Source: a virus (taxonomy: Duplodnaviria > Caudoviricetes). Taken from it: DNA of 64,000 nucleotides. Position numbers and translations under genes: made by a program. The notes under the pieces were generated by a model. That model saw only the letters and a list, made by a program, of their open reading frames with translations, did not search any database and was not told the origin of the DNA. This document shows positions 39,444-55,906 of this stretch, one piece after another. The stretch's first letter is position 1, and every line of letters begins with the position of its first letter. The DNA lies in the IMG/VR virus record IMGVR_UViG_3300028833_000065; one strand, written 5' to 3'.

Positions 39444-39538
39444 CTTGACAGTGCGGAAATTTAGATGTATAACATCTAAAAATTTGAATTGACATTCTTA
39501 TTATTTAGTAGTATACTTACCTTGTTCTCAGGAAGGAG

Positions 39539-39847
39539 ATGACTATAATGAAGCGAATTGTTAAGAAGCGAATTGTCTTGTATTGCCCTTGGGAAGATGA
39601 AGAAATTATTGGCACAGAAGAGTATGATAGTTCCATACCAGACGAAGATATTCTTAATGCTTTACATGAACAGGGGAAGACTATGTGGCTTCCGACTTAT
39701 CCTGACTATGATGAACTTTGGCTTATGCTACCAGACAATGGTATAATGTTGCCACATTATAAGTTTGGTGTGGATGAATTTTATGTTCAGATACCGACAT
39801 TTTGGGATAAGATAAAAGATGCGCTGTTTGGACGGAAGGAGAGGTAA
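39539..39847 (+). CDS. Hypothetical protein (inverted cassette)
   Basis: TTGACA promoter at 39489; AGGAAGGAG RBS. Confidence 0.65.
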   Translation: MTIMKRIVKKRIVLYCPWEDEEIIGTEEYDSSIPDEDILNALHEQGKTMWLPTYPDYDELWLMLPDNGIMLPHYKFGVDEFYVQIPTFWDKIKDALFGRKER

Positions 39848-39849
39848 AA

Positions 39850-40062
39850 ATGTTTAAAATTGGCGATAAAGTGATGATTGATAATGAGGAACGCTTAGTT
39901 GGTTATATTGTAAGTATAACCATTGACCCGTTGGAAGAATATAGTGTAAAGACAGAAACTGAGTTCAACTTTATTACTTATGTGGTTCGTGTCTTCAAGC
40001 CGTTTTATGTTAATGGATACTCGGACTTCTATCGTATGAGTGATGATTTGACAAGGGTTTAA
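39850..40062 (+). CDS. Small SH3/KOW-like hypothetical protein
   Basis: MFKIGDKV...GYIVSI; terminator AAGGGCGAAAGCCCTT. Confidence 0.6.
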   Translation: MFKIGDKVMIDNEERLVGYIVSITIDPLEEYSVKTETEFNFITYVVRVFKPFYVNGYSDFYRMSDDLTRV

Positions 40063-40132
40063 GGGCGAAAGCCCTTAAATTATTTTAGATGTATAACATC
40101 TAAAATAAAACAAGGCGGTTGCCCGCCTTATT

Positions 40133-40501
40133 TTAGCTATATAACTGACTGATAGCATTGCGCCATGCGATTTCCAACATTTCATATGGGTCTGCCCATT
40201 CTGCTCGGCCAGTATAATGATTAAGTTTTGTGATATCAATTGCGTTATATTCTTTTAAGTCCGCTTCATATGCGGCGAGAATATTACGCACATGCTCACG
40301 GCTTTCTTGTGCCTTTTTAAGTTCAACATCTTTTACGGGGCCATCTGGTAGCATGTTGGCGCAACCTTCATACTTAATAACCTGGGCGCATTTAGCAATA
40401 AGTTCGTTTCTATGCGCGCTGAGGTCAATGGTCAAACGCCTGTATTCGGTATCCTGAAAACTCCACCAAGTATCTTTTGTCTGTTCTTTCTTAAACAACA
40501 T
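40133..40501 (-). CDS. Hypothetical protein
   Basis: Own promoter, RBS and terminator between palindromes 2 and 3. Confidence 0.65.
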   Translation of the reverse strand: MLFKKEQTKDTWWSFQDTEYRRLTIDLSAHRNELIAKCAQVIKYEGCANMLPDGPVKDVELKKAQESREHVRNILAAYEADLKEYNAIDITKLNHYTGRAEWADPYEMLEIAWRNAISQLYS

Positions 40502-40681
40502 TTATTTTTCCTTCTTTCTATTGTTCTTGGGAACAATGCTATTATAGCATATTATAGGAAAATTACAAGAAGAAGATTTAGATGTTTTACATCTAAATAT
40601 TCCTGTTGACTTCTCAATTAAATGGAGTATAATATAGCCATGAACTGAAGGAAAACAGTTGAAACCAGAAAGGGAAAGAAA

Positions 40682-41164
40682 ATGACGAAGTATCTGATTG
40701 TGCGGTGTGAAGAACTGATGGACCAGTATGAGTGCGATGCTAACCGTGAACCGATGTTTCTGGTGGATGATTGGACGAAATGGTATCAGGAAAATCATCC
40801 GAATTATCAGTTTGAAGTGTATAAGTTTGAAGATGATAAAGAATGTACTTTGGAAAAGACTTATGAAGAGTCTATGGATTATGGAATGGCATTATACTTC
40901 TGGAATATGGATGATAGCCATGAAGAAGTAGCGCCGACCGTAATTGCGCATTATAAGGGTTATAATCGCGATAAGAAAGTGCCTAATAAAGTGTGGAACG
41001 TTTTTCGACAGGGTGCTTACTGGGCAGACGGTGATGAATTTACTGAAAAGGACTTTAAGAATGACTTGAGAAGTTGCGGATATGTTGCTTGGGATGATAA
41101 GGAGCATAAGAAATTTTGGGTATATGGGTATTATGCGGACGGGCGCTATTGCTTGGGATATTAA
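40682..41164 (+). CDS. Hypothetical protein (inverted cassette)
   Basis: TTGACT-17-TATAAT at 40606, leader motif, terminator AAGGAGCAAATGCTCCTT. Confidence 0.7.
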   Translation: MTKYLIVRCEELMDQYECDANREPMFLVDDWTKWYQENHPNYQFEVYKFEDDKECTLEKTYEESMDYGMALYFWNMDDSHEEVAPTVIAHYKGYNRDKKVPNKVWNVFRQGAYWADGDEFTEKDFKNDLRSCGYVAWDDKEHKKFWVYGYYADGRYCLGY

Positions 41165-41229
41165 GGAGCAAATGCTCCTTTTTCTTTTTTTAATTTTAGA
41201 TGTTTTACATCTAAAATAAAAAGGATGGT

Positions 41230-41490
41230 CTAAAACCATCCATAGAGAAGAGAAAGAAAATAAATATTAAGAACTACGCTTGACAGATGCATCAGAACAT
41301 CATTGATGTGCCGATGCTGTGAGAGGTCTTTACATACGCCGAAAAGCGCGATTGCGAGTCCGAACCATGAGACTTGAAGGCCGAAGAGCATAATCAGGAC
41401 TACATTCAAGATGGTAATTCCGCACCGAACATCATTCCATTCAAAGCGGTAAGGGGTTTCAATTCCGAACCAATTCTTAATCGTTTCCAT
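41230..41490 (-). CDS. Small membrane protein ending in TAG
   Basis: Hydrophobic segments; the TAG lies inside the terminator hairpin. Confidence 0.6.
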   Translation of the reverse strand: METIKNWFGIETPYRFEWNDVRCGITILNVVLIMLFGLQVSWFGLAIALFGVCKDLSQHRHINDVLMHLSSVVLNIYFLSLLYGWF

Positions 41491-53723: not shown

Positions 53724-53868
53724 GTTTCAATCCTTCTTTCTTTTATTTCGTTCCCCTTGGAACATCTATAGTATACTGCCATTCGGGAAAAATGTCAACA
53801 GTAGTTTTTAGATGTATTACATCTAAAATTAAAATGAAATAATAGGTCCCGTTTCGGGACCTATGGAA

Positions 53869-54024
53869 TTATTCATAATACTCAACGATGTCCCAACCGC
53901 CGGACCAAATTCCGCCAAAGTGTGCGTTGTCCTCTACCCATGCCGCCGCGGCACTGATGGTTTTGAATCCATCTTCAATAATGATGTTCCATTCGATGCT
54001 TACAATACGATAGCGCTTCTTCAT
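53869..54024 (-). CDS. Small hypothetical protein
   Basis: Smallest cassettes (~300 bp) still have promoter, RBS and terminator. Confidence 0.55.
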   Translation of the reverse strand: MKKRYRIVSIEWNIIIEDGFKTISAAAAWVEDNAHFGGIWSGGWDIVEYYE

Positions 54025-54146
54025 CGTTCTTACTTCCTTTCTTTTTGTGTTCCCTTGGAACAACTATATAATACACCATTTTGGGATTTGTGTCAACTTT
54101 TATTTTTAGATGTAATACATCTAAAATTAAAATGAAATACAACGGG

Positions 54147-54401
54147 TTATGTGCCCGTTGTTTTTGGTTGTGGGAAAAGCCGCTGACGCAAATTGATTGT
54201 ATCTTTAAGTTCATTTAATTTTGAAATTGCGGTTTTATGCGAAGAATAATCGATATCAATGCGATTATGGATATAGGTTCCGGGAACTAAATAAATTACT
54301 AAAGTAGAATTATAATATTCCTTTTTTGAATTGAAATTATCAACCACTTTGGCGAAAGTTATACTATTTTCGCTAAACATCATTTCTTCAAAGATAATCA
54401 T
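54147..54401 (-). CDS. Hypothetical protein
   Basis: AAGGGG RBS; a second small ORF lies near 54449..54595. Confidence 0.5.
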   Translation of the reverse strand: MIIFEEMMFSENSITFAKVVDNFNSKKEYYNSTLVIYLVPGTYIHNRIDIDYSSHKTAISKLNELKDTINLRQRLFPQPKTTGT

Positions 54402-54757
54402 AATATATCCCCTTTCGGGACGGCGGATTATTCCGCCGTCAAATTCGTCTTAGTGTAATAGAGATTGAAATTACCGTATTCTACGGAACAAGGGTCAGTG
54501 ATATCATCATAACCATTTTCTTCGGCATCGGTATAGAGTTCGGTTTCGGGAACGATGTAACCATTTTCTTTGTGCATCCAATAATAGTTTTTCATTTTGT
54601 AATTCCTTCCTTTCTTGTCCCTTCGGACAAGTGTATTATACTACTTTTAGGAAAAAATGCAAGTTTCATTTTTAGATGTTTTACATCTAAAAAACGAAAA
54701 AATAAAATTGAAACAAAAATATAAAGGTTGATATACTCAACCTTTATATATTAATAT

Positions 54758-55027
54758 TTAATGTTGATTATCATATCGCATTAGAATTACATTAGAATAA
54801 TGTGTTAAATATGTTATGCCTTCAATGGTAACCTGCACAACATCTGATTCATCAAAGTCGCGCCAATTGTCAATTTTACCTTCAATCATTTCACCGTTAT
54901 GTAAGATAATGATTGCTTCGTCAAAGCTTTGCTTAAAGTCAAGACCAATTTGACGATTCCCAAGAGAGCAACCTGTCATCATTAGAACACTAATCAGTAA
55001 TAGGGCAATAAGAATAACTTTTTTCAT
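54758..55027 (-). CDS. Putative lipoprotein
   Basis: MKK + hydrophobic stretch + lipobox MTGC. Confidence 0.7.
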   Translation of the reverse strand: MKKVILIALLLISVLMMTGCSLGNRQIGLDFKQSFDEAIIILHNGEMIEGKIDNWRDFDESDVVQVTIEGITYLTHYSNVILMRYDNQH

Positions 55028-55137
55028 AACGATTACTTCCTTTCTGTCCTTTGGACAAATATATTATAACATTTTTTAAAAATATTACAATGCTTCTTTT
55101 TAGATGTATTACATCTAAAATATAAAAGGTGTATTGC

Positions 55138-55446
55138 TTAGCAATACACCAATTCCATTGTAGACCATTTAAGAATACTAATCTGTTTATGTTCGCGCCC
55201 GATACGAAGCGCTTCTTTCTTTGTGCTAACACGGAAACTATGGTCAATATAGTAAATACCTTCACTATACCAGATGCCGCAGCTTCCCTCGTACAGCTTT
55301 ACAGCTTGCATAGCAGCTTCCGGTGTAGCAGCTTCCATGCCGTAGTCGGCTACCTGGTAGCCGCTCTTATATGACACAATACGTCCGTTCTTCAGTGTAA
55401 GCCCATCGTTGTTGCTCAGTTTTCGCATGGTCCGAATGTTAATCAT
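55138..55446 (-). CDS. Hypothetical protein
   Basis: DGLTL...GYQVA...GIW...YYID.S...EAL..G....QISI..W. Confidence 0.65.
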   Translation of the reverse strand: MINIRTMRKLSNNDGLTLKNGRIVSYKSGYQVADYGMEAATPEAAMQAVKLYEGSCGIWYSEGIYYIDHSFRVSTKKEALRIGREHKQISILKWSTMELVYC

Positions 55447-55906
55447 TGTTTGAACCTCCATTCCTTTGATGTGTATAGTATACTAAACTATGACAGAAAA
55501 AGCAAGAGAGGATTTTAGATGTCTTACATCTAAAAAAAATACACTGCCATTAGATATGGCAGTATAATCATTATTATACAATTTCAAGTGCATTCATATA
55601 TACTTCTTCAGCTTCCCGCATATTCCATACTGCGATCATCTTATTGATAATAGTATAAATATTCTTCTTTGCCATTGCGTACATTTTCATCATTATTATT
55701 TCCTTCTTTCTATTAGTTGTGTTCATCAAGAACACCTATATTATACGCCTTTTTCTAGACATGTCAAGGCAAGTTTTTAGATGTGATACATCTAAAAAAT
55801 AAATATATATTTTTATAACTATTATAATAAATAATATATTTTATTATGTTTATAAAAATATATGTATATGAGTATAACATATATAAAAGAGGCTTATTAT
55901 CGCCTC

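Follow-up and report, generated by a model that had tools for sequence, protein, structure and literature searches.

A 64,000-nucleotide stretch of a Caudoviricetes genome (IMG/VR virus record IMGVR_UViG_3300028833_000065; hereafter, the window) carries 29 copies of a 19-bp palindrome, TTAGATGT-NNN-ACATCTAA, between positions 39461 and 55795, and these copies bound 28 small early-gene cassettes. The patterns described below suggest that the palindrome is a multicopy operator for a phage-specified homodimeric protein and, secondarily, a recombination linker resembling the promoter early stem-loops (PeSLs) of T4-type phages. This proposal, which we hold with modest confidence, builds on the sites, their register to the promoters, their conservation, their lineage-specific alleles, and the enrichment of breakpoints, all of which were observed directly. 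The region is an early, host-takeover-type part of a large phage using host sigma-A-type promoters.

The exact pattern had a shuffle expectation of 0.00. All 29 copies were intergenic, and no further site was found anywhere in the 64 kb, even when up to three mismatches were allowed, in agreement with the initial annotation, which had reported 29 intergenic copies confined to the array. The 19-bp sites start at positions 39461, 40085, 40578, 41196, 42406, 43225, 43844, 44968, 45891, 46491, 47100, 47657, 48222, 49144, 49705, 50039, 50528, 51432, 51866, 52238, 52661, 53024, 53402, 53808, 54106, 54672, 55100, 55515, and 55777. The layout of the repeating unit was obtained from an alignment of the flanks at all 29 sites together with a promoter and terminator scan. 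On the minus strand, a G+C-rich terminator hairpin with a T-run extending up to the site is followed by the palindrome, an A/T-rich spacer of 8 to 10 bp, TTGACA, 16 to 18 bp, TATAAT (often with TG), a ribosome-binding site (RBS), and one to four small open reading frames (ORFs). The earlier description of each interval as a self-contained unit with its own sigma-A promoter, genes, and terminator therefore holds, mostly on the minus strand. Minus-strand units make up 24 of the 28 intervals, and the other four are plus-strand units (39461-40085, 40578-41196, 45891-46491, and 47657-48222), with the promoter at the left end and the terminator at the right end. Taken between their sites, these inverted cassettes span 39480 to 40084 (cassette 0), 40597 to 41195, 45910 to 46490, and 47676 to 48221.

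Exactly one site is present at each junction, regardless of cassette orientation. At a typical head-to-tail junction, the site at 52238-52256 is preceded by a minus-strand terminator (52283-52265) and followed, after a 9-bp spacer, by a minus-strand promoter with a 12/12 consensus match (TTGACA at 52228, end of TATAAT at 52201). The site at 40578-40596 is common to two divergent promoters, on the plus strand at 40606 and on the minus strand at 40568, each 9 bp away. The sites at 45891, 47657, and 39461 are of the same divergent type, the last with a clear promoter on the plus strand only. The site at 40085-40103 is promoter-less and lies between convergent terminators (40056-40081 on the plus strand and 40135-40106 on the minus strand), and the same arrangement, with a promoter on neither side, was found at 41196, 46491, and 48222. 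In addition, a short inverted repeat of the tgttcc-NNN-ggaaca type was observed just downstream of many -10 boxes, at the cassette transcript starts (for example, at 54615-54631, 55045-55057, and 55719-55735).

A scan of viral contigs returned approximately 800 exact sites in 112 stretches and about 35 contigs, many of them 130 to 190 kb long. Approximately 86 additional family sites carried one to three mismatches, often as symmetric double changes. The closest record, the IMG/VR contig G001, is about 95% identical to the window and has 30 sites. In each of four complete genomes, all sites were located in a single array of 6 to 16 kb, always adjoining the packaging module. When 50,697 deposited phage genomes were searched with the array by megablast and blastn, no relative and no cultured multisite phage was detected, and a literature search on the motif led only to primers and unrelated sequences. 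The clade is abundant, uncultured, and partly recoded at TAG, it seems to originate from rumen or gut samples, and its hosts are probably Clostridia. Exact matches in 596 Gb of prokaryotic genomes were at about the chance level, barring short multisite contigs binned in metagenome-assembled genomes (MAGs). These contigs (Acutalibacteraceae, Oscillospiraceae, and Bacillota) are mis-binned phage fragments and give only a weak hint of the host. The palindrome was also found as a single copy in about 15 Neobacillus and Bacillus genomes, where a promoter with a CodY-like box precedes it and the copy is part of the transcribed 5' leader. In Neobacillus, Bacillus, and Priestia, this leader copy lies below a promoter with the CodY-box-like AATTTTCAGAAATT and above an RBS repeating AGATGTC (loci L153, L161, L163, L164, L168, L178, L194, L197, L203, and L206), and it looks like a leader RNA switch. 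As an unrelated RNA hairpin in a transcribed 5' leader, it was dropped as a clue to the DNA-binding protein.

The position of the site relative to the promoter was nearly fixed across the family. The palindrome was separated from the -35 element by 9 bp in 518 of 678 promoters (76%) and by 8 to 10 bp in 94%, and 447 junctions showed a clear terminator-site-promoter order. The palindrome occupies about -63 to -45, that is, the position of an UP element. Between the window and G001, no substitution was found at the 448 arm positions compared, whereas 7 of 84 positions in the central triplets and 40 of 560 positions in the 10-bp flanks were changed (p = 1e-11). Invariant arms had been described at the outset together with a variable triplet, but the triplet is in fact constrained. 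Among 630 oriented family sites, the triplet was 91% A/T, compared with 75% in the spacer, and its positions 8 and 10 were complementary in 74%. This complementarity places the symmetry axis on one base pair, so the arms are effectively 9 to 10 bp long. The oriented site logo was symmetric, and the site is a perfect palindrome. Half-site centers about one helical turn apart are the typical geometry of helix-turn-helix (HTH) operators.

Site alleles differed among lineages. Arrays of a sister allele, TTAGACGT-N3-ACGTCTAA (ACGT), were found on 81 further viral stretches; they contained 470 pure sites, 3 hybrids, and no site of the ATGT type, and the 9-bp register was seen again. Both alleles occurred in phages with portals 33 to 39% identical to the window portal. 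Other lineages showed, in the same register, the symmetric variants TTAGGTGT/ACACCTAA and TTGGATGT/ACATCCAA, as well as an outward extension of the site, ATTAGATGT...ACATCTAAT. In one phage with two half-site variants, 13 and 6 homotypic sites were counted versus 17 hybrid sites (Fisher p = 1), and this free combination of half-sites indicates that arm complementarity is not required. Together, these patterns fit a site that would be read as duplex DNA by a protein dimer rather than as a hairpin or cruciform.

The palindrome is not an obligatory part of the promoter, because consensus promoters without it exist both inside the array (41949-41922, 43082-43054, and 43672-43644, all on the minus strand) and outside it (38244, 38898, 39123, and 57082). 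The promoter at 43054-43082 has a 12/12 match and no site upstream. Many of the site-less promoters bear a different upstream element. A second promoter class was recognized among them, in which a GAAAnTTTC-like or 'tttcaaaaaacctc' element takes the place immediately upstream of TTGACAAAC and the palindrome is missing. The promoters of this class at 43054-43082 and 43644-43672 drive both winged-helix genes, described below, from within cassettes, as tandem promoters.

The exchange of cassettes was examined by cutting all arrays at the sites, which gave 767 cassettes in 452 DNA-level families, including 336 singletons. Cassette content changes rapidly in this family of arrays. Contig pairs shared a median of 27% of their cassettes; 90.5% of the shared cassettes were collinear, and no orientation difference was found among them in 56 contig pairs. 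An extra 336-bp cassette of G001, comprising terminator, gene, promoter, and site, sits exactly at the palindrome corresponding to 55515-55533 of the window, and the cassette that adjoins this insertion point is 55534-55776 (minus strand). G001 also has a 177-bp insertion (46050-46226, locus L018) relative to window position 43187, which adds a second promoter and a hairpin within a cassette. The edges of this insertion are a direct repeat of the promoter-proximal CTGACAGTTAT, not the palindrome. Homology decay was then read outward from shared cassettes into unshared neighbors, with the palindrome as the anchor. On the promoter side, identity was 0.8 to 0.97 across the promoter, remained at 0.97 at the near triplet base, and fell to baseline just beyond the far arm. 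On the terminator side, homology extended into the next promoter in about half of the events.

We next defined breakpoints as the 191 distinct ends of blocks with at least 90% identity. Block ends fell in the palindrome in 22.5% of cases versus 4.5% expected (a fivefold enrichment), and a further 46% versus 22% expected lay elsewhere within 75 bp of a site, for a total of 68% versus 27% expected within 75 bp. In the cassette interiors, block ends were depleted (31% versus 73% expected). This distribution shows that crossovers favor the regulatory junction as a whole, not the palindrome alone, and are most sharply focused at the palindrome. This is the PeSL pattern. Breaks in relatives, which the initial annotation had proposed to compare with the sites, are enriched at the palindrome, but many also fall in promoters, terminators, and genes. 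Its suggestion of cassette shuffling and capture stands as an evolutionary pattern, with whole-cassette differences and enriched breaks, and does not stand as a capture system. In five relatives that are 93 to 100% complete, none of the Phage_integrase (PF00589), Resolvase, or Y1 HUH families was found, and RecA, RecT, and Erf were not detected; such Pfam negatives are of limited weight in phages this divergent, although enzymes of the tyrosine and serine recombinase classes can usually be detected. When the 44 cassette and flank proteins were all scanned against Pfam, no HTH and no recombinase family was returned, consistent with the earlier statement that the window contains no visible recombinase.

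Candidates for the protein that reads the site were sought among the array genes. A census of array proteins gave four widespread families, namely, an exonuclease, a HAD nucleotidase, a family of about 119 amino acids (aa), and a winged-helix-like superfamily. The superfamily consists of two subfamilies with full-length homology to each other (hhalign probability, 95.6%), and almost all reasonably complete arrays encode one or the other. In the window, it is represented by P0004 (42672-42998, minus strand), a small protein that we regard as a weak candidate reader from its structural model and PDB matches, and by its paralogue P0005 in the neighboring cassette (43269-43592, minus strand; 38% identity, E = 1e-19). 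The P0004 model, with a predicted local distance difference test (pLDDT) value of 90.7, has two N-terminal helices and a helix-helix-beta-beta unit. Its top PDB matches were all winged-helix domains with weak E-values, and members of the second subfamily gave subthreshold MarR, DprA_WH, and HTH matches. Prediction of P0004 self-association gave a score of 0.14, which is below the mark and counts neither way. The conserved small early protein P0001 was also tried as a reader and rejected, since its confident fold has no DNA-binding resemblance and no PDB match. Outside the array, a small core-genome winged-helix protein was observed near topoisomerase-like genes, syntenic in all four complete relatives (G003, 98037-98396; G017, 74581-74838; G008, 92628-92888; and G019, 109962-110222).

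Among the possible readings of the palindrome, a master operator or insulator for a dimeric protein, which the initial annotation had listed as its alternative to shuffling, is the best supported, by the 9-bp register, the arm conservation, the allele-pure arrays, and the free half-sites. From these patterns, we infer that a protein binds the site, that it is phage encoded and dimeric, and in which direction it acts. The putative homodimer would bind the twofold symmetric duplex site, which is present at nearly all early promoters and directly follows the previous terminator. Given that these promoters are near consensus to begin with, shut-off or insulation is most likely and activation less likely. 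The bound protein would most likely shut off or insulate the entire early cassette regulon at once, either by blocking the contact between the C-terminal domain of the RNA polymerase alpha subunit (alpha-CTD) and the UP position or by forming a roadblock beside the terminator. Since the palindrome is one sequence at all junctions and reads the same on both strands, it would also offer a preferred exchange point, where general or microhomology-driven recombination may preferentially swap whole promoter-gene-terminator cassettes in either orientation. A palindromic linker would permit insertion in either orientation with one site left per junction and thereby could account for flipped cassettes without an invertase. 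Several observations weigh against this interpretation. There are several perfect consensus promoters without a site, and promoters are absent from both sides of at least 53 sites across the family and of 4 in the window. The promoter-less convergent sites match promoter sites in conservation, with 2 of 33 degenerate compared with 58 of 691. A pure promoter operator would not predict their conservation; a terminator-side roadblock or insulator, a role known from stoperators (PMC6550527), or cooperative binding along the array, would account for it. The same 16 arm bases are kept in lineages with a portal only 33 to 39% identical, a stability that is unusual for a phage regulator and its operator. 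Furthermore, no reader protein was found among the candidates examined. A search for an integrase, HUH, or HTH gene co-occurring with the motif had been proposed at the outset; the first two were not found in the five near-complete relatives, and of the winged-helix candidates that were found, neither the recognition-helix region of the array proteins partitions by site allele nor does the syntenic core-genome protein track it.

The stability of the arms across very divergent phages keeps alive a reading in which a conserved factor of the host, such as a global regulator or a protein associated with RNA polymerase, binds the palindrome, which the phage would have put next to every early promoter so as to couple early expression to host state. 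We consider this unlikely. Early promoters must fire ahead of any phage protein, the register to the -35 element is no less rigid than the promoter that the host dictates, the arms remain identical even in some phages without TAG recoding and at the portal divergence given above, and no tested phage protein tracks the site allele. In a comparable way, phi29 places Spo0A boxes at its early promoters. However, ATGT and ACGT form pure arrays, and contigs with either allele have been assigned to the same MAGs. Near-matches in five candidate-host MAGs were mostly on a few short, multicopy, phage-like contigs, and the scattered remainder was about as frequent as a reversed-pattern control. The chance-level result in the 596 Gb of prokaryotic genomes, mis-binned phage fragments aside, also argues against a host site, and to our knowledge, no known operator has the palindrome sequence.

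A dedicated novel site-specific recombination system that would capture, delete, and flip cassettes as integrons or shufflons do, with the palindrome as its core site, is improbable in our view. It would explain the presence of one site per junction in any orientation, including the perfectly conserved promoter-less convergent junctions, as well as the whole-cassette indel exactly at a site, the sharp homology drop and fivefold breakpoint enrichment inside the palindrome, and the existence of hybrid half-site combinations. Against it stand the missing Phage_integrase, Resolvase, and Y1 HUH families in five relatives at least 93% complete, the lack of any orientation difference in 56 contig pairs with 90% of shared cassettes collinear, and the location of 77% of block ends away from the palindrome, with many of them in promoters or terminators. 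The 9-bp register to the -35 element would have no role in such a system. Tyrosine recombinases cross over across 6 to 8 bp and serine recombinases across 2 bp, and the 1- to 3-bp center fits neither. The integron or shufflon reading is not supported. A combined scheme seems just as improbable, in which one as yet unrecognized phage protein would both switch the early regulon and nick or synapse the sites for cassette exchange between co-infecting phages in either orientation. If true, such a dual-role protein would represent a recombinase-family-independent, palindrome-addressed cassette exchange, with ATGT, ACGT, and GGTGT as compatibility groups. The initial annotation had also raised a single-stranded DNA (ssDNA) hairpin with a 3-nt loop. 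An ssDNA or RNA hairpin with an 8- to 10-bp stem, serving as an N4-type virion-polymerase promoter or an RNA processing signal, would be stable as ssDNA (-6.6 kcal/mol), and a 3,310-aa protein of the window could be a giant virion protein. Nevertheless, we judge this very improbable. In the phage with free half-site mixing, 47% of the sites would have an A-C stem mismatch, the complementarity of positions 8 and 10 would shrink the loop to an impossible 1 nt, and the arm sequence itself, not merely its pairing, is invariant. The site is also largely untranscribed, because a terminator precedes it and a promoter follows it, and no Rfam family matches the palindrome.

The surroundings of the array were examined by reading TAG as glutamine, which opened long frames in the flanks (1-38000 and 57600-64000). 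TAG appears to be a sense codon (assumed to be Gln) in the structural, packaging, and helicase genes. A 3,310-aa ORF at 16887-26819 contains 50 in-frame TAG codons, and the cassette ORFs contain none. Some distant relatives with an identical palindrome have no TAG in the portal gene. The 3,310-aa ORF was considered as an N4-like virion RNA polymerase and set aside, with no Pfam, PHROG, or PDB sequence match, although remote homology is possible. To the left of the array are a helicase-like gene and virion-type genes. To the right is the packaging module (57604-63139, plus strand), comprising a conserved protein of about 435 aa, a 317-aa ORF, the large terminase, and the portal, all TAG-recoded; this array-then-packaging synteny is common to the four complete relatives. 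An ORF at 57296-57814 may be spurious. A Thg1-like tRNA-His guanylyltransferase gene was also noted at 29674-30462 (minus strand; PF04446, E = 9e-32).

The cassette genes are mostly ORFans, and Atlas look-ups returned only viral hypothetical clusters. A DnaQ-like DEDDh 3'-5' exonuclease is encoded at 48277-49041 (minus strand), with motifs Exo I, II, and III invariant in the alignment, and a second DEDDh paralogue is encoded at 43891-44877 (minus strand). This is the sole cassette protein family common to the arrays of all four complete genomes compared. An assignment of this universal protein as a PLD-like nuclease, from a weak MIT_C match, was rejected on the basis of the DEDDh motifs in the alignment. 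The gene at 49178-49675 (minus strand) is a HAD-type 5'-3' deoxyribonucleotidase-like early gene (phrog_2643, E = 9e-12) and is widespread with both site types. The family of about 119 aa, represented at 50081-50440 (minus strand) with a paralogue at 47146-47436, is likewise widespread with both site types (27 of 34 ATGT contigs and 29 of 46 ACGT loci) and has no Pfam match. P0001 (55138-55446, minus strand) is also found with both site types, at up to 73% identity. Its AlphaFold model is very confident (pLDDT, 97), yet the protein matches neither a PDB structure nor a Pfam family. The dispersed paralogues reported earlier in the cargo were confirmed as three pairs: the exonucleases, the winged-helix proteins at 42672-42998 and 43269-43592, and the members of the 119-aa family.

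The main interest of the array is that a single addressable site lays open the entire early regulon of an abundant, uncultured phage clade. If one protein reads more than 25 identical sites and these control all early transcription units, the array would provide a clean model for how large lytic phages of anaerobic Firmicutes time and silence their host-takeover genes. The site alleles ATGT, ACGT, GGTGT, and TTGG provide simple sequence markers for sorting metagenomic phages into regulatory or compatibility groups, and the palindrome-plus-promoter unit could be used as a compact insulated expression module.

Among known systems, the resemblance to integrons lies in a tandem array of small heterogeneous cassettes, each bounded by a repeated, perfectly or imperfectly palindromic site. 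However, no IntI-type recombinase was found here, either in the window or in the five relatives 93 to 100% complete. The attC site is 57 to 141 bp long, conserved in its folded structure but not in sequence, and active as a folded single strand, whereas the site described here is an invariant 19-bp sequence. Integron cassettes are promoter-less and depend on a common Pc promoter, whereas each cassette here has its own promoter and terminator. Unlike shufflons, the arrays have no Resolvase or integrase family and show no orientation polymorphism in 56 contig pairs. Unlike N4-type hairpin promoters, pairing is not required, and the giant ORF has no polymerase similarity. A regulatory parallel is provided by the stoperators of Cluster A mycobacteriophages such as L5 and Bxb1. 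These 13-bp sites are asymmetric, follow the direction of transcription, are the targets of a monomeric immunity repressor, and are distributed genome-wide in temperate phages (PMC6550527, PMC9283540), and their consensus co-evolves with the repressor (PMC6550527). Both systems have 20 to 30 near-identical short sites per genome, mostly in short intergenic gaps and with many off promoters, and in both the consensus differs between sub-lineages. In contrast, the sites described here are symmetric, occur only within one early-gene array, and keep a register with the -35 element, and their binder is putative. No integrase or other lysogeny gene was found, unlike in stoperator phages. The temperate actinophage phiC31, which has its own early-promoter class, has a repressor that binds conserved inverted repeats (CIRs). 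Like the palindrome, the CIRs are highly conserved palindromic operator copies located between genes in a phage early region.

Another close likeness is to the PeSLs of T4-type phages, which combine a terminator stem-loop with a strong early promoter around ORFans in a hyperplastic region (PMC2839356, PMC4122927), a comparison that the initial annotation had aptly drawn. In both cases, a composite of terminator hairpin and strong host-type early promoter flanks small ORFans in a hyperplastic region, and whole units have been inserted, deleted, or replaced between close relatives, the crossover points being within the common motif. The array differs in having an extra invariant, perfect palindrome of 19 to 21 bp that separates terminator from promoter and keeps a constant 9-bp register, and this palindrome has lineage-specific alleles and is kept even at promoter-less junctions. 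The phages themselves are unrelated, with Gram-positive-type promoters, TAG recoding, and no cultured members on the present side. The resemblance is one of a class that works alike, not of a family by descent. As a concrete mechanism for the orientation-free exchange of ORFans, the palindromic linker would take the PeSL idea beyond the T4-type phages.

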